Source: a virus (Duplodnaviria > Caudoviricetes). From it: 25,845 nt of DNA. The position numbers and the translations under genes are program-made. How positions within the stretch are numbered: position 1 is the first letter of the stretch; each line of letters opens with the position of its first letter. Below are positions 4,572-23,688 of the stretch, piece after piece. The notes below the pieces were generated by a model. The model was given only the letters and a program-made list of their open reading frames with translations, had not been told where the DNA came from and ran no database searches. The stretch is from positions 1 through 25,845 of the IMG/VR virus record IMGVR_UViG_3300046167_000116; one strand, 5' to 3'.

Positions 4572-4600
4572 ATGTTAGCACTAGCACACGCGCAGTGCAA
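4572..4600 (-). promoter_or_regulatory. Leftward sigma70-like promoter
   Basis: Minus strand reads TTGCAC-N17-TAACAT in an intergenic gap, just after a terminator. Confidence 0.55.
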
Positions 4601-4638
4601 ACAATTCCTTGGCGTGTCTTCTAAAAGTACACACCAAT

Positions 4639-4677
4639 AAAAAGGGCAAGGCCAAGGGTAATACCCATGACCAAGCC
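4639..4677 (-). terminator. Putative intrinsic terminator for the 4695-5162 gene
   Basis: Minus strand GGC-TT-GGTCA-T-GGGT-ATT-ACCC-T-TGGCC-TT-GCC followed by CTTTTT. Confidence 0.55.
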
Positions 4678-4694
4678 TAAGATTATATCTTTTA

Positions 4695-5162
4695 TCAAAG
4701 CGTAATACCTAGCGACGCTAGATCTTGCGCTGTCTCTGAGTCTATCTCTGTCGGTGCGCCATCTGGTGCTACGTTAGAGTTAGTAACAGTTGTATATACT
4801 TCTTCGTTCTCTGCTTGATACGCAAGTTGCGCATCATCTAACTGAGCTTGAAGAAACTCTACGTTGTATTGGTCAGCCTTTGCCTGAGCCAAAGATGCTT
4901 GGTAATTATTCTCTGAGATCTCGTCACCATTGCGGCGTCTTGCCCAATGTGATACCCAACCTTTTTGCTGATCGAGCCTACGTTCTTGACGTGGTATCCA
5001 GTACTCTAAGAAACGTATCTCTTGTTGTAACTTCATCTTACGCAAAAAGGTCATGCTATCTGCGTTGTACCAACCATCTTTGTCAGATAGCGTAGGTCTG
5101 TTGTTGAATAGTTCTGTATTGTTTACATATGTTTCAGTCATTGTTGTGATTAAATTAGTCAT
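4695..5162 (-). CDS. Hypothetical early protein, predicted helical/coiled-coil with acidic C-terminus
   Basis: 155-aa ORF with AAGGA RBS, bracketed by a large hairpin upstream and a terminator downstream. Confidence 0.8.
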   Translation of the reverse strand: MTNLITTMTETYVNNTELFNNRPTLSDKDGWYNADSMTFLRKMKLQQEIRFLEYWIPRQERRLDQQKGWVSHWARRRNGDEISENNYQASLAQAKADQYNVEFLQAQLDDAQLAYQAENEEVYTTVTNSNVAPDGAPTEIDSETAQDLASLGITL

Positions 5163-5202
5163 TGTATATATCCTTTATATATTACTGTTTCTTATATCTC
5201 TG

Positions 5203-5280
5203 GCCAGCACCGAAGACTGATGATAGTCAAGGGCGCAAGCCAAAGGGAACCCTTGACTATTGTCAGTCATCGGGGCAGGC
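5203..5280 (+). promoter_or_regulatory. Long hairpin, candidate Frpo/ssi-like single-stranded-DNA promoter
   Basis: 5210-5233 pairs with 5250-5273 (24 positions, one A-A mismatch, two G-T wobbles) and extends to 5203/5280. TTGACT lies at 5253-5258 in the 3' arm. The structure is seen directly; the function is inferred. Confidence 0.55.
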
Positions 5281-5295
5281 GAACTTCTTATATCT

Positions 5296-5469
5296 TTATA
5301 CTATTTCTATCTCTTGTTCTTTTATTACGAAGAAATAATCTAGCTTGTGCTGATACTCGAGAGCTTCGGCTATAGTATGAGCTATTGTGTATGATTTATA
5401 TCTACCTATTTCTTCTAACTCTATTTCTGCTATGCCATCTTTGTATGGTAATCTATTTACTGTATACAT
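5296..5469 (-). CDS. 57-aa hypothetical protein, first gene of the early arm
   Basis: MYTVNRLPYKDGIAEIELEEIGRYKSY...; ATG 5469 has an AGAGGA RBS and is preferred over the track start at 5496. Confidence 0.65.
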   Translation of the reverse strand: MYTVNRLPYKDGIAEIELEEIGRYKSYTIAHTIAEALEYQHKLDYFFVIKEQEIEIV

Positions 5470-5484
5470 TGTCTTTCCTCTTAT

Positions 5485-5963
5485 ATTAATACTCACACAA
5501 GACCACCTTGTGGATATGCCAATACATATGCACGGAAAATACTGTCAGTCATTGAGATTAAGCAAAGCGACCATTTTTCTAAAAGAAAAATTGATAATCT
5601 CATTACCTCTCACGCGCAAATGAACTCTTGTGAATGAGCATGAGGGGTTGACGGACTGTATTTTATGTTGCGAAGCGAGGCAGAATCCGCACGGGGGTTC
5701 ATGTGTGTGTATGTTAATACATTTGATCTGCGAATAAGGATGCTACTAGGACTCTGTTCTCGTTGGACAACATGAAGTGTAGCCAACTTGCTGAAGGCAA
5801 GTTGCCATGTAATGTTGTTCACCGACGAACATAGTTCAAGCATCCTTGTAGAGCCGATCAAACGGCTAGTGTTCAGCGCAGAAGAAGAGATAAGCACCGC
5901 GATCAGGATAGAAGCCCGAAGGGCGGAGACTTTAGGCTCCGTTCACGATAGCCTGTTAATCGC
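5485..5963 (+). other. Highly structured non-coding region (three consecutive folded domains; ssDNA element or ncRNA)
   Basis: More than a dozen nested complementary segments in 5485-5718, 5722-5862 and 5899-5963 (listed under findings); no convincing ORF. Confidence 0.7.
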
Positions 5964-5975
5964 CCAACATCTGTT

Positions 5976-6012
5976 TTGTGCGTTGACACAGGGTATAATT
6001 GATGTGCTAAAC
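5976..6012 (+). promoter_or_regulatory. Rightward late promoter, TTGTGCGTTG-N18-GTGC motif (copy 1)
   Basis: TTGTGCGTTG 5976-5985 overlaps TTGACA (5983-5988); GTGCTAAAC starts at 6004; upstream of terS; the motif recurs before other structural operons. Confidence 0.65.
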
Positions 6013-6054
6013 ATGGGGGGAGAGAGGGAGAGGGGGGCTACAGTAGGAGTTAGT

Positions 6055-6432
6055 ATGGCAAACATAGCACTAAGGAAGTTAACAAAGAAACAGACTGCAC
6101 TCGTTGAAGCGTATGTAGCAAATGGTGGGAATCTTACACAAGCCTCACAAGAAGCTGGATACGCTGAAGGCGACAGCGGAAGAGTGACTGCACAGAAGAG
6201 TATGAAGCTAGCCCATGTGCAACAGTACATGATGGAAGTGGTGGCGAAGGAGTTTAGCAGACATGCTCCTGCGGCTGTGCATCAGTTGGCAGGGCTATCT
6301 AGGAAGGCTAAGAGTGAGTACGTACAGCTGGAAGCTAGCAAGGATTTACTCGATAGAGCAGGGTTTAAGCCGATAGATAGATCTCAGGTGCAATTAGCAG
6401 GGGACATCAAGGTGTCAATAGACTTAGGATAA
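6055..6432 (+). CDS. terS: Terminase small subunit
   Basis: LTKKQTALVEAYVANGGNLTQASQEAGY HTH and SEYVQLEASKDLLDRAG motif; ATG 6055 has an AGGAG RBS. Confidence 0.88.
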   Translation: MANIALRKLTKKQTALVEAYVANGGNLTQASQEAGYAEGDSGRVTAQKSMKLAHVQQYMMEVVAKEFSRHAPAAVHQLAGLSRKAKSEYVQLEASKDLLDRAGFKPIDRSQVQLAGDIKVSIDLG

Positions 6433-6552
6433 GGGGGTGGGGGGTCAAAACTCTCGGGCACTATGTTATGTTACGTCCCTCACTCACATGATTACTAAAA
6501 AAAGGCTCGAACAAAAGAGCTAAAAATATTTGGATTAAAAAGGGTTTTGTAA

Positions 6553-6884: not shown

Positions 6885-7177
6885 GTAAGACTCCAGCATG
6901 GACACGTAAAGCAGGGAAGAATCCCAAAGGCGGTCTTAATGCTAAAGGGCGTGCTAGTTATAAAGGTGGTACTCTTAAAGCCCCTGTTAGGTCTGGCGAT
7001 AACCCAAGAAGAGCTTCTTTCTTAGCACGAATGGGTGGTATGAAGGGGCCAGAGCGTGACTCTAAGGGTAAACCCACTAGACTTCTTCTTAGCCTAAAGG
7101 CATGGGGAGCATCGTCAAAAGCTGACGCTAAGTCAAAAGCAGCAGCCATTAGTAAAAGGAATAAAAAGAATGCCTAG
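6881..7177 (+). CDS. Basic phage protein, DUF6321-like
   Basis: AWTRKAGKNPKGGLNAKGRASY...LKAPV...RRASFLARM...KPTRLLLSLKAWG signature. Confidence 0.8.
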   Translation: MSKTPAWTRKAGKNPKGGLNAKGRASYKGGTLKAPVRSGDNPRRASFLARMGGMKGPERDSKGKPTRLLLSLKAWGASSKADAKSKAAAISKRNKKNA

Positions 7178-7487
7178 CAAAATTGAAAATAAAAAAATGA
7201 CAGGACAAGCCCCTGCAGCAAAAACATTATTAAGACAAATACAAAGCGAGTTAAAGAAAACAGTTGGCTATGATGGGCAATCAAAGTTTGAAAGCGACTT
7301 TACCACAATAAAAGGTAAGCGTGTTGAAAAGCTAATGTCTCCAAGAAAAGTTGCTAGTGCTATATCCGCAGGATTTGATGCAGCTAAAAGAAAAGTGAAA
7401 GGTCAAGAAAGTCGTTCTTCTTTGCTAAACAGAGAGAAAAAAGTAAAACGTCTTCTTAAAGACTACAGAGCAGGGAAGCCCCAGTAA
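7170..7487 (+). CDS. Basic hypothetical protein
   Basis: 105-aa Lys/Arg-rich ORF, AAGGA RBS, tiled with neighbours. Confidence 0.7.
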   Translation: MPSKIENKKMTGQAPAAKTLLRQIQSELKKTVGYDGQSKFESDFTTIKGKRVEKLMSPRKVASAISAGFDAAKRKVKGQESRSSLLNREKKVKRLLKDYRAGKPQ

Positions 7488-7818: not shown

Positions 7819-8014
7819 GTGAGTTTTCTAAATACATTGCAGCCTAAAGAGCGCGATACACTAGCGTAGGGTGGTGCGCATAGTACATATGAAGCATCAT
7901 CCTAAAGATTTTCAGACAGATCACGAAGCTGACAAGATTATTGAGGCTATTGGCCCCGAAATTGCAGCAAGAATGATTAAAGTTGGCATAGATAATAAGA
8001 TTTTAGATAAGTGA
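7819..8014 (+). CDS. 64-aa hypothetical protein upstream of terL (one-base insertion near 7864)
   Basis: Removing one base near 7864 gives MSFLNTLQPKERDTLRRVVRIVHMKHHPKDFQTDHEADKIIEAIGPEIAARMIKVGIDNKILDK, ending in a GTGA overlap with terL. Confidence 0.6.
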
Positions 8015-9536
8015 TAGATTTTAAATACAGGCCAGATGGCGAAGTTGTTAAGGCGTTTATGAAAGACGACACGTTCTTTCGTGGCATTCGTGGGCCTGTT
8101 GGTTCTGGTAAGTCAGTGTCTTGTTGCGTAGAAATTTTTAGACGCGCACTAGCGCAGAAGCCTAATAAGCAGGGCATACGCCGCAGCAGATGGGCAATAA
8201 TCCGTAACACAAACCCACAGTTAAAGACTACAACCATAAAAACTTGGCTTGATTGGTTTCCAGAAGACCAGTGGGGTAAGTTTACTTGGTCAGTTCCCTA
8301 TACACATATGATAAAAAAAGGCGATCTGGAGCTTGAAGTCCTCTTCTTAGCACTTGATAGGCCAGAAGATGTCAAGAAATTGCTATCTTTAGAGCTGACA
8401 GGCATATGGGTTAACGAAGCTAGAGAGATTCCTAAGTCAATTATTGATGCATGTACCATGCGTGTAGGTCGTTTTCCCTTCTATGCGTGATGGCGGTGCT
8501 ACTTGGACAGGCGTTATCTGTGATACTAACGCTCCAGAGGAAGATCATTGGTGGCCTATCATGTCTGGCGAAGTGCCAGTTCCTGATCATATCCCTAGAG
8601 AACAGGCTAAAATGCTGGTGAAACCCGACAACTGGTCGTTTTATACCCAACCTAGCGGTATGATAGAAAAGTTTGACGAAGATGGGGAGATAGATGACTA
8701 TGTGCCTAACGATGTTGCAGAGAATAGGGAGTATATGCGCGAGGATTACTACCCAAATCTGATACGTGGTAAGACAAAAAGCTGGATTGACGTATACGTT
8801 ATGAACAAATTAGGCTCAATCCAAGAGGGTAAACCTATCTATCAGATGTTTGCAGCCGATATGCACGTAGCAAAAGAGGAAATACCTATCGCTGCTGGCT
8901 CTCCCCTATACATTGGTATAGATTTTGGGCTTACACCTGCTGCTACAATGGGGCAAAAGGTACGTGGTAGGTGGCTAATACAGCAAGAAATCGTTGCATT
9001 TGACATGGGTATCGTTAGATTTGCAGAGGTTTTGCGCCAAGAGATAGCTACTAGGTTCTCAACTTGTTCGGAGGTATTTATATATGGCGACCCTGCTGGT
9101 GATTTCCGCGCTCAGACTGATGAATCAACGCCCTTTCACATACTGCGTGGTGCTGGTTTGCGTGCTTTCCCTGCTCCGTCTAATTCTGTTGACCTAAGAT
9201 TAGAGAGTGTTGCGTCCCAATTACAGAAAATGACAGAGGGAAAGCCAGCATTTCTTATAGATCCGCGCTGTCAGCAGCTAATAAAAGGCTTTGAAGGTGG
9301 GTATCAGTACAGACGTATGGAGGTTTCTGGTGAAAGATACGCAGATAAGCCTGATAAAAATATGTTTTCGCACGTACACGATGCGCATACAGTACCAAAT
9401 GTTAGGTGCTGGAGAGGGCAGAGCCTTAATAAACAACCAGAAACCAGCCTCTGCAACAGTAGCAAAGGGCAGTTTTAATGTATTTGATAACCGAAAGAAG
9501 CCACAGCGTAGACAAGGATTGTGGTCAAGACTCTAA
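8011..9536 (+). CDS. terL: Terminase large subunit (about 507 aa; apparent +1 insertions near 8477 and 9387)
   Basis: Walker A GPVGSGKS, Walker B WVNEARE, DTN coupling motif, nuclease GIDFGLTPA and SHVHDA. Three track ORFs join into one frame after removing two bases. Confidence 0.93.
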
Positions 9537-9537
9537 A

Positions 9538-9568
9538 TTGTGCATTGAAAACTTATTCTTTTCTGTGC
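9538..9568 (+). promoter_or_regulatory. Late promoter motif (copy 2)
   Basis: TTGTGCATTG-N17-GTGC in the intergenic gap before the portal operon. Confidence 0.55.
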
Positions 9569-9599
9569 CAACCAATGTAAAACAACCAAGGAGAATAAT

Positions 9600-9849
9600 A
9601 TGTGTGGTGGCGGTAGCAGAAGAAGCCAAGCTGATATAGATCGTGAAGGCGAAAGGAAGCAGCGGATGCTCGTATAGCAGCAGAAGATGCGAAAGCGTAA
9701 AGAGATTGAAGCGAAAGCAGAACAAGAAACGTGAAGATATTGGTGAAGCAGTAGAGTCACGCGCTGAAAGCAAAGCTATGCGTGGCGGTAAAGGTCGTCG
9801 TTCTCTATTTAGAGCTGGTGGCGGTGGATTCTTAGATCGGTTTAGTTAA
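9600..9849 (+). CDS. Small virion protein upstream of portal, T7 gp7.3-like position (frameshifted in this read)
   Basis: AAGGAG RBS, starts MCGGGSRRSQADIDRE and ends RGGKGRRSLFRAGGGGFLDRFS; apparent insertions in 9648-9730. Confidence 0.6.
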
Positions 9850-11395
9850 TGGAAAAAGTTGCCAAGCAGTACATACAGAAGTATGAGAAAGCCAAGTCCT
9901 TTCGCGAGAACTGGGTTCCGTTGTTCGAGGAGTGCTATGAGTATGCACTGCCTCAACGTGAGAGCTTTTTACGCTGAAACTGCTGGGCAAAGACGCGATG
10001 ACCGCATATTTGACGAGACTGCGGTGGTTGGCGTTCAAGAGTTTGCTAGTCGCCTCCAGTCTGGGCTTGTACCTAATTTTGCTAGGTGGGCTGATCTCAT
10101 GGCTGGTAGTGAAGGTTCCTCCAAATCAGCGCGAATCTGTTGATAACGAGCTTGACGAGGTAACAGAATACGTCTTTGAGATACTACAAAACTCTAACTT
10201 TAGCCAAGAAGTACACGAATCCTTCATGGATTTAGCTGTTGGTACTGGTGTTTTGTGCGTAGAAGAGGGCGATGCACTCAATCCTGTTAACTTTTCTGCC
10301 ATACCATTGCCTCATGTGGTGCTAGATACTGGCCCAGATGATAGAATTGACCATGTTTTCCGTGAGCGTAAGGGTGTAAAGTACGATCACTTAGAAATAA
10401 TGTACCCAAATGGCACGTTTGACCCAAAGGTTATGAATTATATGGGGTCAGATAAGACAACAACTGTACTAGAAGTTATATGTCGTGACTATTCAGCTAA
10501 GAATCAAGAGGCTTATCTAAGCTATGCGTTCTGTATGACTACAAATACTGTGTTAAACTACAAACAAATGGAAGGGTAACGGCTCAAATCCGTTTATTTG
10601 CTTCCGTTGGTCTAAGTGTGCAGGTGAAGTTTATGGTCGTGGCCCATTAATTAACGCATTATCTGCTATAAAAACTACAAATCTTACCATTGAAATGATA
10701 CTTGAGAATGCACAGATGGCTATCTCTGGCTGTATACCAAATGGAAGATGATGGCGTAATAAACCCAGATACAATACAGTTAGTCCCAGGATCTATCATA
10801 CCAAAAGCTATGGGTTCTAGCGGATTGCAGCCTATAACGTGCAGCAGGTAGCTTTGATGTAGCCCAGTTAGTGCTAGGTGATATGCGTCAAAACATTAAA
10901 CGTGCGCTATATAACGATATGTTAGGCAATCCAGACAAGACACCAGCGTCAGCAACAGAAGTAGCAGAGCGCATGGCAGACCTTTCTAGGCGTATGGGTG
11001 CTGCTTTTGGTAGGTTACAAGCTGAATTAGTGCAACCAGTGCTACAGCGCGTTATTTACATCCTTAAAAAGCAAGGACGCATAGATGTACCTACTGTAAA
11101 TGGGCGTGAAGTTAAGATACGTTCTGTATCTCCACTAGCTCAAGCACAATCTAACCAAGATATATCTAGTGTTGGTAGGTTCTTAGAGATGGTTGCTGGT
11201 ACATTTGGGCCAGAGATGTTGCAGCTACTAATTGATGGTGAGCAAACAGCTATACATCTAGCTAAAAAGTTTGGCGTACCTGAAAGCTTGATTCGAGATG
11301 AAGAACAGCGTAAACAAATAGCTGCATTAGCGCAACAAATGGCGCAACAACAAGCGCAACAACAACAGGGTGAGATGGTTGAACAACAAGGTTAA
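9849..11395 (+). CDS. Portal (head-tail connector) protein, about 513 aa, five apparent +1 insertions
   Basis: EECYEYALPQR, IFDETA, SNFSQEVHE..DLAVGTG, RWSK.AGEVYGRGP, ATEVAER, GRLQAE, SPLAQAQ motifs of the T7 gp8-like connector. Breaks near 9970, 10113, 10573, 10731 and 10837. Confidence 0.92.
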
Positions 11396-11640
11396 TATCG
11401 GAGTTGATGGTTATCAAAGAGCTACGAGTCAAGATCTAGCAGATAAGCCAGAATATTGCTGAAATATTTAGTACCCCTGCTGGTGAGGCTGTCTTAAAGT
11501 ATTTGCGCTCCATTACTATTGAAATGGTACATGGGCCTAATGTGACTACAGAAGAACTACGCCACCATGAGGGTCAGCGTTATATCGTTGGCCTACTAGA
11601 GAGGCGTATATCACATGCACATAGGAGTAAAAACAAATGA
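11379..11640 (+). CDS. Bbp19-like small protein between portal and scaffold (one insertion near 11439)
   Basis: IFSTPAGEAVLKYL...EGQRYIV motif; TTG start; ATGA overlap with the scaffold gene. Confidence 0.72.
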
Positions 11641-12368
11641 ATGACATCCCAACAGAGTCAGAACAGTCAACACATGGGGAAGCTGCGGAGCGTGACTTTG
11701 TAGTTGCAGAAGATGCAGCCCCTGCTAGGCCAGAATGGTTGCCAGAAAAGTACAATAGTGGCGAAGATTTAGCCAAGGCATACAAGGAACTTGAGTCTAA
11801 GCTAGGCACAAAGGAAGAAGACCTGCGTGCTAAGTTTAAAGAAGAGTATGATTCTACAAGAAACGCTAATCGACCAGCGTCTGCTGGAGAGTATGCACTA
11901 CCAGACTTTGTTGATGATGAAGAAGCTGTAGATAATGAGCTACTTAAATGGTGGGCTGAAGAATCTTTTGATAGTGGATTTGGTCAAGATAAATTTGAAA
12001 AAGGTATTGAGATGTATCTTCAAGCTATGGATCAGTCTGCTCCTGATCTTGACGCTGAAGCTGCAAAACTGGGGGAAAACTCTGATCAGCGAATAGAAGC
12101 GGCATCTATGTTTGCTACTAAGTTTTTCCCCAAAGAATCTATGCCAGCTATTGAGCGTATGTTTGAAACGCATGAAGGCATTATAGCTATGGAGGCTATA
12201 CAAGAAGCCATGAAAGATGGTTCTTTCACTGGAGATGCAACACCTGCAGCTGGTTTAAGTGAAGACAGTCTAAAGGAAATGATGCAAGATCCAAGGTATT
12301 GGAGCAAGAATGACCCTGCATTTGTTCGGCAAGTAGAGGCTGGCTTTAAGAAACTTTATGGAAGCTAA
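11637..12368 (+). CDS. Capsid scaffolding/assembly protein
   Basis: Acidic; RPEWLPEKY...LAKAYKELESKLG and MMQDPRYW..DPAFVRQV motifs as in T7 gp9-like scaffolds; synteny. Confidence 0.85.
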   Translation: MNDIPTESEQSTHGEAAERDFVVAEDAAPARPEWLPEKYNSGEDLAKAYKELESKLGTKEEDLRAKFKEEYDSTRNANRPASAGEYALPDFVDDEEAVDNELLKWWAEESFDSGFGQDKFEKGIEMYLQAMDQSAPDLDAEAAKLGENSDQRIEAASMFATKFFPKESMPAIERMFETHEGIIAMEAIQEAMKDGSFTGDATPAAGLSEDSLKEMMQDPRYWSKNDPAFVRQVEAGFKKLYGS

Positions 12369-23000: not shown

Positions 23001-23688
23001 TATGAACAGGGTTATTATGGGTGGTCCAGAAGATAAGCCAATTACTATGGATGGTGTAGCATATATACCAGATCATATAGCTAGAACTTTGCCATACTAT
23101 GATAAAATGCCAAAAGATTCTAGAGTCCCAGGATATGTTAGATTTGAATCTGGCTTCTTAGCATTACCATTTACTTTTTATAGCTTTGTGGTTGGAGCAT
23201 TAAACAAAATTACAGGTAATATGGCAGCTGGTGCTGTAAGAAATAAAACGGCTCATATAGCTGTAGCAATGATACTTGGATATAGTATTACAAAATTCCG
23301 CACACCTGACTGGGCTTGGGAAAAAATGGATATAGAAGATAAAGTAATGAGATCTTTTGATATGTCAGGTATAGCTGCACTACAAAGCGATATGCTTTAT
23401 AGAACGCTATCAATGGCACATGAGTTTGGTTTTGATAGTGGTTTTCCAATACAGCCAAAATATAGCGGTGGATACGATCCATTAGGTGCAGCAGTAAGTG
23501 TAGGTGGCGCACCAGCAGATTGGACATTAGAAATGATGCGATCAATAAAGCTTATGATTGAAGGTGATGTAGGAGATGGCGCAAAGAAATTTGTAAATAT
23601 GCTTCCTCTTATAGAAACAGTAGCTACTGGTGACGTAATTAAAGACACAATGAAAGATATTGTAGGGCAATTACCTAACAGGCCATAA
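20097..23688 (+). CDS. Large internal virion (ejection) protein, gp16-like position (about 1196 aa; frameshift in A9 run 21887-21895)
   Basis: Track ORFs 20097-21908 and 21811-23688 fuse (LPRIFNRKKIHKDRDGF) when one A is removed; hydrophobic C-terminal segments. Confidence 0.72.

Follow-up and report, generated by a model that had tools for sequence, protein, structure and literature searches.

Why should the DNA between the two arms of a tailed dsDNA phage carry a series of long hairpins, and would these act in duplex DNA, in RNA or in a single DNA strand? The window analysed here is an entire virus record of 25,845 nt. Its leftward early arm encodes a YqaJ exonuclease, a replication initiator, a resolvase and HTH genes, and its opposite-facing, rightward late arm encodes terS, terL, a portal-like protein, capsid, tail tube and internal virion proteins. 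The first-pass annotation had read the sequence between the arms as a control cassette of the kind found in plasmid leading regions, where Frpo and ssi hairpins work as single-stranded DNA. The nearest cultured relative of the phage is Pelagibacter phage EXVC031P Hodr (OQ414635), with 54% identity in the capsid and 56% in TerL; the capsid is only ~30% identical to those of HTVC034P and MEP301, and the runner-up for TerL is BcepC6B, at 42%. By capsid and TerL identity, the phage appears to be of the same broad kind as the HTVC010P-type pelagiphages, of which it may or may not be a member. The five near-complete relatives carry no tyrosine integrase. Scanning 36 ORFs of the window for transfer genes found none, and oriT, relaxase and T4SS are likewise absent. 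In the late arm, terL and the portal-like gene (8011-11650) are split by frameshifts, which are probably sequencing errors because contigs from other runs differ by one base at several of these spots; a 105-codon ORF (7170-7486) is skipped cleanly (315 nt) in several runs' contigs and appears to be an optional insert.

In and around the region between the arms, we delineated the following features:

4695..5162, minus strand: first early gene, 155 aa, acidic product (pI 4.5)
5171..5175, minus strand: Shine-Dalgarno-like site of the 155-aa gene
5203..5280, plus strand: D1, a hairpin with a branched cap; predicted single-strand promoter of the 155-aa gene
5253..5258 and 5276..5281, plus strand: predicted -35 and -10 region of the D1 promoter, with a 17-nt spacer
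5296..5469, minus strand: 57-codon ORF, predicted to be fed by D2; close relatives carry different small ORFs instead
5485..5718, plus strand: D2, a branched hairpin with a predicted -35 (5648-5653), a GAA mini-hairpin (5670-5676) and a predicted -10 region (5677-5682)
5722..5890, plus strand: D3, a long hairpin with no gene attached; a diverged homologue occurs in the relative L034
5898..5968, plus strand: D4, a four-way-junction ssDNA motif; predicted complementary-strand priming signal
5977..6013, plus strand: rightward duplex promoter-like site of terS, TTGACA at 5983 and 19-nt spacer; conserved
6015..6038, plus strand: polypurine G-tract before terS, a near-mirror sequence; conserved
6055..6432, plus strand: terminase small subunit gene (terS), ATG at 6055
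6433..6483, plus strand: G-run/TCAAAA...CCCTCAC element after terS; candidate packaging site

The four folded domains lie where the first-pass annotation had located them. On the plus strand, D1 (5195-5285), D2 (5485-5718) and D3 (5722-5890) are all more stable than their dinucleotide shuffles, with z-scores of -7.7, -5.5 and -7.2 under RNA parameters and -6.9, -5.8 and -5.9 under DNA parameters, respectively. D4 alone (5895-5965, plus strand) is not significantly more stable than such shuffles (z -1.5), and we regard it as real despite this weak fold because of the homology and covariation described below. The TTGAC words reported in two of the 3' arms are present, at 5253 (D1) and 5648 (D2), and both domains have a minus-strand RBS and ATG beside them (5171/5162 and 5475/5469). 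The description of the folds as filling almost all non-coding DNA between the arms needs amending: the stretch is not wholly non-coding, because the 57-codon ORF sits between D1 and D2. A longer, GTG-start form of this ORF gave no family match. All four short mini-loops described earlier exist (5670, 5915, 5240 and 5562), but the one at 5562 does not form a mini-hairpin in the predicted fold. Small hairpins also occur within the 57-codon ORF (5340-5385; DNA z near -2) and past the 155-aa gene (4640-4731), the latter a possible terminator. D3 could be an extra promoter, a primer source or a replication roadblock.

We compared the locus across two sets of relatives. The window clade comprises the best 80 of 288 confirmed terS relatives, 70 of them with enough upstream DNA. 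The held-out set comprises the best 80 of 594 confirmed loci matching the Hodr terS, of which 66 have enough upstream DNA and 49 are distinct; the subset analysed is the 36 loci with a first ORF of at least 120 aa. The sequence at ~4575-5970 differs in many relatives whose terS is ~95% identical, and the upstream sequences of the 70 window-clade loci fall into 20 clusters. Despite this swapping the layout is kept: the ATG and RBS of the first leftward gene, a fold-back on the terS strand, and the terS promoter. A stem score of at least 40 is reached by 34 of the 36 held-out loci; among 103 tiles of the window, the median score is 20 and the highest 36. Compensatory changes occur in 11 of 19 consensus pairs among six D1-type elements, and in 24 of 47 among six elements of the commonest type. 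Hodr shows the same layout, its hairpin scoring z -7.7 on the terS strand and -8.1 on the other; the stem extends down through the RBS and ATG, as it does in many relatives, and no ordinary duplex promoter-like site is seen until past the first gene and a terminator-like hairpin. With an estimated ~1,400 IMG/VR stretches matching the Hodr terS, the phage family looks abundant.

The region 4575-5970 also behaves as a modular hotspot, in which promoter hairpins, first genes and small ORFs are reshuffled independently beside a near-identical terS. The hairpin-D4-terS layout, or D4 together with the first-gene family, spans extremes of GC content (L166, 67%; L135; L119/L131, 33%), which suggests a wide host range for the system. 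L135 and L166 have the usual layout; L120 has D4 before terS, and its upstream region folds better on the opposite strand. Alignment A3 was made without row L110, which had been mis-cut, and without two other rows.

The strands were compared by a self-alignment that scores every mismatch alike and is thereby strand-neutral. The claim that the wobble pairs work only on the plus strand holds for the mismatches themselves (nine G.T and no A.C in D1-D3), but DNA folding energy hardly separates the strands for D1 and D3. In 25 regions of the window clade, G.T outnumbers A.C by 73:38 (39:10 among isolated mismatches), and in the held-out set by 77:36 (42:17); p-values attached to this bias overstate it because related loci are not independent. 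The terS strand folds better in 28 of the 36 held-out elements and does not in the other 8.

G.U pairing would give the same bias in a large structured plus-strand ncRNA, antisense to the early leaders, and the RNA z-scores are as strong as those for DNA. Loop sequences speak to this alternative. Across 58 regions (24,824 nt), there are 60 C-GNA-G triloops on the terS strand; the other strand has 11, two-base block shuffles have 21.2 +/- 4.3, and RNA-type tetraloops are not enriched (terS strand, other strand and shuffle: 6, 10 and 11.8 for GNRA; 2, 3 and 1.1 for UUCG). GNA triloops are unusually stable in DNA and are not known to be so in RNA, so that their enrichment, with no matching excess of GNRA or UUCG, favours ssDNA over plus-strand RNA. 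An ncRNA is further disfavoured by the Rfam 15 search of the window, which returned no curated match and one chance hit elsewhere (E 0.85), by the wholesale sequence swaps among relatives with near-identical terS, and by the way D4 tracks the single-stranded DNA strand in plasmids and microviruses. Available RNA runs speak neither for nor against it: contigs from two runs of one study cover only ~6030 onward and those from two others cover everything in a DNA-like manner, and strains differ in their cassette. We consider the ncRNA reading highly unlikely.

The hairpins might instead be minus-strand mRNA leaders that hide the RBS, or duplex cruciforms or divergent promoters. Such roles would be compatible with the near-equal folding of the two Hodr strands, with the eight held-out elements that do not fold better on the terS strand, and with the stems of Hodr and many relatives, which take in the RBS and ATG. 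Set against these, mismatch classes and triloops favour the terS strand by about 2:1 to 5:1, and imperfect, branched arms would probably not extrude on both strands. We see hardly any chance that this explanation is right.

The single plus strand may present promoters when folded. In D1, A5277, at -11, lies opposite A5206, so the duplex reads T at that position. In the window clade, 19 of 22 elements have a paired TTG[AC][ACG] in their 3' arm and 7 of 22 have one in their 5' arm, and GCAA/TTGC is invariant among 17 aligned elements whose caps are wholly different. When -11 is counted helix-wise, skipping bulges and side hairpins, 17 of 23 elements can be anchored, and A stands at -11 in 16 of these 17 (null 0.62, spacers 16-18, p 0.003), a result obtained post hoc with the third counting way tried and with 12 of the 17 elements drawn from one homologous family. 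At a spacer of 17, A occupies -11 in 16/17 folded readings versus 2/17 duplex readings. Pairing breaks at this position, with 0 of 15 elements unpaired at -12 and 9 of 15 at -11. The D2 boxes were assigned by eye against L034, and the automatic helical anchor picked a different TTG; the GAA mini-hairpin at 5670-5676 would be extruded. The duplex reading of D2 retains a weak promoter-like site.

In the held-out set, the promoter statistic failed. Under the same helical rule, A was found at -11 in 11 of 22 elements (null 0.54), and TAnnnT occurred in 4 of 22 compared with 0 in the duplex (p 0.12). The 3' arm showed no enrichment of the -35 motif (26 vs 20). Four further AT-rich elements, that of Hodr included, carry TAnnnT one step beyond the preset spacer range, as judged by eye and post hoc. 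Plain counting along the 3' arm gave a weak signal, and an unanchored E. coli matrix scored the fold no better than the duplex (9/21 and 15/32). A simple duplex scan found 3 promoter-like sites vs 5.5 expected, none of them a leftward site ahead of the first gene. The predicted -10 boxes are weak, with T at -7 mostly absent; in alphaproteobacterial promoters, A-11 is described as essential and T-7 as often absent (PMC7703639, available text). On these sequence patterns, we judge it likely, but not proven, that the D1 and D2 folds are single-strand promoters.

The gene that D1 would serve belongs to a family that holds this position throughout the clade and in Hodr, whose gp22 is a member by profile match (E 5e-4). 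The family has 207 representatives at E 0.001 and accounts for 13 of the 36 held-out first genes; a search for relatives in bacterial genomes found none. The 155-aa protein received no Pfam, PHROG, PDB or Atlas name. Its predicted structure is a long helical hairpin (pLDDT 82), and its structure matches are generic coiled coils only, with Z up to 10.8, below the bar set for helical models. The matches neither favour nor disfavour a Gam-like nuclease inhibitor as its identity. Its position suggests a protective or host-takeover role, which makes this unnamed family a candidate source of anti-defence or host-takeover proteins.

D4 links the cassette to mobile DNA. The window segment 5880-5980 matches 2,993 of 72,556 plasmid records at E<=10, 2,166 of them conjugative, and the best match to the D4 region has E 2e-9 and 89% identity over ~55 nt. 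A 20-letter D4 pattern also recovered 97 viral stretches. In 43 copies, D4 forms a four-way junction with 95% of cells paired and 112 compensatory cells. Its covariation score is 0.32, against 0.09 when shuffled and <=0.05 with partners slid; the search pattern fixed part of two helices, and most of the varying pairs fall outside it. The number of covarying pairs (8) is not above that of shuffles. A D4 model identified 8 copies across three IncF leading regions and another 2 in the F plasmid; every one of the 10 plasmid copies examined is on the strand that serves as template for the leading genes. The F copies (NC_002483, 58088-58173 and 63476-63561; L197:18089-18174 and 23477-23562, minus strand) precede ssb (by 470 nt) and the gene at record position 64032 (by 471 nt) and lie a short way past the two Frpo-type sequences, which match, by eye, ssiD of Samuel et al.; D4 of the window lies 429 nt from the ATG. 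D4 is homologous to this plasmid leading-region element, with which it shares sequence, the four-way fold and single-strand polarity. It occurs two or three times per IncF leading region (L192-L194).

Beyond plasmids, four microvirus contigs, including a near-identical pair, carry D4 on their coding strand; coding-strand microvirus loci are L116, L125, L141 and L153/L154. In gokushovirus KT264808 it is found at 1610-1679 (E 4e-4), between VP1 (capsid) and VP2 (pilot), the position that the annotated complementary-strand origin occupies in G4. The shared position is suggestive of D4 as a candidate complementary-strand origin of gokushoviruses. Searched with filters off, phiX174, G4 and ColE1 still gave the D4 model nothing significant (best E 1.2), and Rfam gave 0 matches across 8 D4-bearing loci. 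Other viral contigs, from dsDNA phages or prophages, have D4 beside integrases, methylases and recombination genes, so its presence does not by itself imply entry as ssDNA. Within the phage family it is optional: 18 of 80 window-clade loci have it, in every case upstream of terS and on the terS strand. Of 68 further sources, 6 have it; in three it is again upstream on the terS strand, and in the other three it directly follows terS on the opposite strand. These last lie in inserts (L215:1249-1324, L239:3319-3409 and L272:3491-3580, minus strand). Hairpin-rich inserts between the terS stop and the G-run element occur in L214, L052, L275, L278, L280, L215, L239 and L272, and some carry CCACCC-repeat loops. 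A literature search for DRAGN as the name of a D4-like motif matched nothing, and the name was dropped.

If D4 primes, the whole cassette could be a single-strand origin and nothing else, with RNA polymerase or a primosome making primers and the neighbouring genes expressed from elsewhere. The gokushovirus placement and the gene-less D3 fit this proposal, and Frpo transcripts are described as priming conversion in vivo (available text of bioRxiv 10.64898/2026.01.09.698686). Against it, D1, D2 and their analogues stop directly above an RBS and ATG at almost every locus, and the simple scan found no leftward promoter-like site upstream of the first gene. An origin without promoters is, to us, improbable.

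A genome end beside terS is one way in which the strand could become single. The G-run/TCAAAA element after terS is conserved in most loci of both clades, and several contigs end inside it. Eleven contig ends fall within 100 nt of the query start before terS and six within 100 nt after, compared with roughly 2-3 per 100 nt elsewhere; we do not take these clusters as termini because they are scattered and coincide with G-tracts and with the border of the variable cassette. Raw reads searched for termini have a depth of about 1-3 and show no pile-ups. Two terminal-repeat candidates were set aside: identity across the 185-nt end overlap of G001 reaches only 86%, and G008 has a perfect 142-nt repeat of the kind that overlapping assembly produces. 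The terS promoter-like site, with a spacer of 19 nt in most relatives read in the clade and 17 nt in Hodr, forms the right border of the swappable cassette; together with the polypurine tract it may need an activator or form non-B DNA. D4 on opposite strands on either side of terS is what 3'-terminated strands at ends in or near terS would need. The first-pass annotation had named the phage's own YqaJ/Sak pair as one agent of resection; this pair could presumably not act before early-gene expression unless carried in the virion.

We tentatively favour, at a little under an even chance, a reading in which the D1 and D2 template-strand hairpins rebuild a host sigma-70 promoter only while the strand is single, probably just after injection, and D4 re-primes it. 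On entry, resection or a gap at the terS-side genome end would leave the plus strand single. The folded 3' arm would then serve as the non-template strand, with its paired TTG(A/C) as -35 and A-11 at the edge of the open bubble, and host RNA polymerase would read leftward across the RBS and into the 155-aa gene, turning on the first one or two genes. Duplex DNA would spoil the same leftward reading: D1 then has a different base at -11, and in many relatives an added hairpin makes the spacer longer. D4, possibly aided by D3 or by transcripts, would attract the host's priming machinery so that the complementary strand is remade; once the DNA is duplex, the hairpin promoters would fall silent and the terS promoter, an ordinary one, would be available again. 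The outcome would be brief expression of a single protein with a protective or host-takeover role, like plasmid zygotic induction. In F and pESBL, ssDNA promoters are described as active until conversion and as able to prime or delay it (PMC9849209, PMC12672017 and bioRxiv 10.64898/2026.01.09.698686, in the text available). A bolder version has a widespread family of lytic marine dsDNA podoviruses run a zygotic programme of the plasmid type: the terS end would arrive, or promptly become, single-stranded, the fold-back promoters would sense attack on or processing of that end and switch on one conserved early protein, and D4, as a general priming element common to F-like plasmids, gokushoviruses and tailed phages, would bring about conversion to duplex and so end the pulse. 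We regard this version as doubtful.

The same promoters and priming signal could act later, if the plus strand became single during rolling-circle replication, strand displacement or recombination and the first gene were replication-coupled. All the structural evidence fits this timing as well. One relative's early arm encodes YqaJ and what are likely an annealing protein and an SSB (labels read from sequence), the available text of PMC10504331 proposes rolling-circle-like replication for the related pelagiphage Skadi, and D4 also occurs in other dsDNA phage or prophage contigs. Location argues the other way: the elements head the early arm beside the candidate packaging site and point inward, toward what would be entry genes, and the duplex promoter-like site of Hodr comes only after its first gene and terminator-like hairpin. 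We consider replication-coupled action a strong rival, at perhaps a quarter of the probability. If the single-strand promoter reading is correct, infection by a tailed dsDNA phage includes an unrecognised single-stranded stage, or a switch that senses genome-end processing. The idea is directly testable because Hodr is cultured on SAR11 HTCC1062. D4, for its part, links plasmid leading regions, microviruses and tailed phages, and may explain second-strand priming in each.

How, then, does the cassette compare with known systems? In the literature that we found, ssDNA-only promoters for host polymerase are described for conjugative elements, whose DNA arrives as one strand; a search of mostly open-access scope returned no description in a tailed phage and no name for D4. 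The Frpo/ssi-like reading of the first-pass annotation stands in part. It is favoured by plus-strand bias, DNA-type loops, covariation, a -35 above the bubble and a D4 homologue beside Frpo and on microvirus coding strands, but D1-D3 have no plasmid homologues, the -10 boxes are weak and the promoter statistic did not carry over to held-out loci. Like class 1 ssDNA promoters (F Frpo1/Frpo2, that is, ssiD, and ColIb-P9 ssi1-3; PMC9849209 and PMC11541004, available text), the cassette has a long template-strand stem-loop directly above an RBS and ATG, with the -35 in the 3' arm and then D4 on the same strand (470/471 nt from the ATG in F, 429 in the window). Unlike them, it resides in a tailed dsDNA phage lacking oriT, relaxase and T4SS, its downstream gene is of an unnamed family, and blastn of 5190-5900 against the 72,556 plasmid records gave chance-level short matches only (best E 0.7). 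Class 2 promoters (klcA/ardA, ssp2; Wen et al. 2025, PMC12672017, available text) include an F antirestriction-gene hairpin that, by eye, has a G-run/C-run clamp directly above a TTG -35, a short cap word like those of D1 and L071, and A facing A at -11; this likeness is limited to ~20 nt and unscored, and the class 2 -10 box is closer to consensus. Hodr also has a -10 box closer to consensus, and differs from the window in its unrelated hairpin sequence and in having no D4 match.

D4, as a small branched ssDNA fold on the microvirus coding strand, resembles the phiX174 primosome assembly site, the G4 origin and the ColE1 pas; these gave no significant sequence or structure match to the D4 model, and priming by D4 is a prediction. 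The virion RNA polymerase of phage N4 begins early transcription from ssDNA hairpins with GNA-type triloops; there the polymerase is the phage's own and is injected, and the hairpins are short and extruded from duplex. The window differs from N4 in its stems, which measure 30-100 bp and carry host-type -35 boxes, and in that no polymerase gene is seen in it. By analogy, the cassette likely works as class 1 and class 2 ssDNA promoters do, belonging to neither by sequence or location, with the exception of D4, which it shares with the plasmid leading regions.
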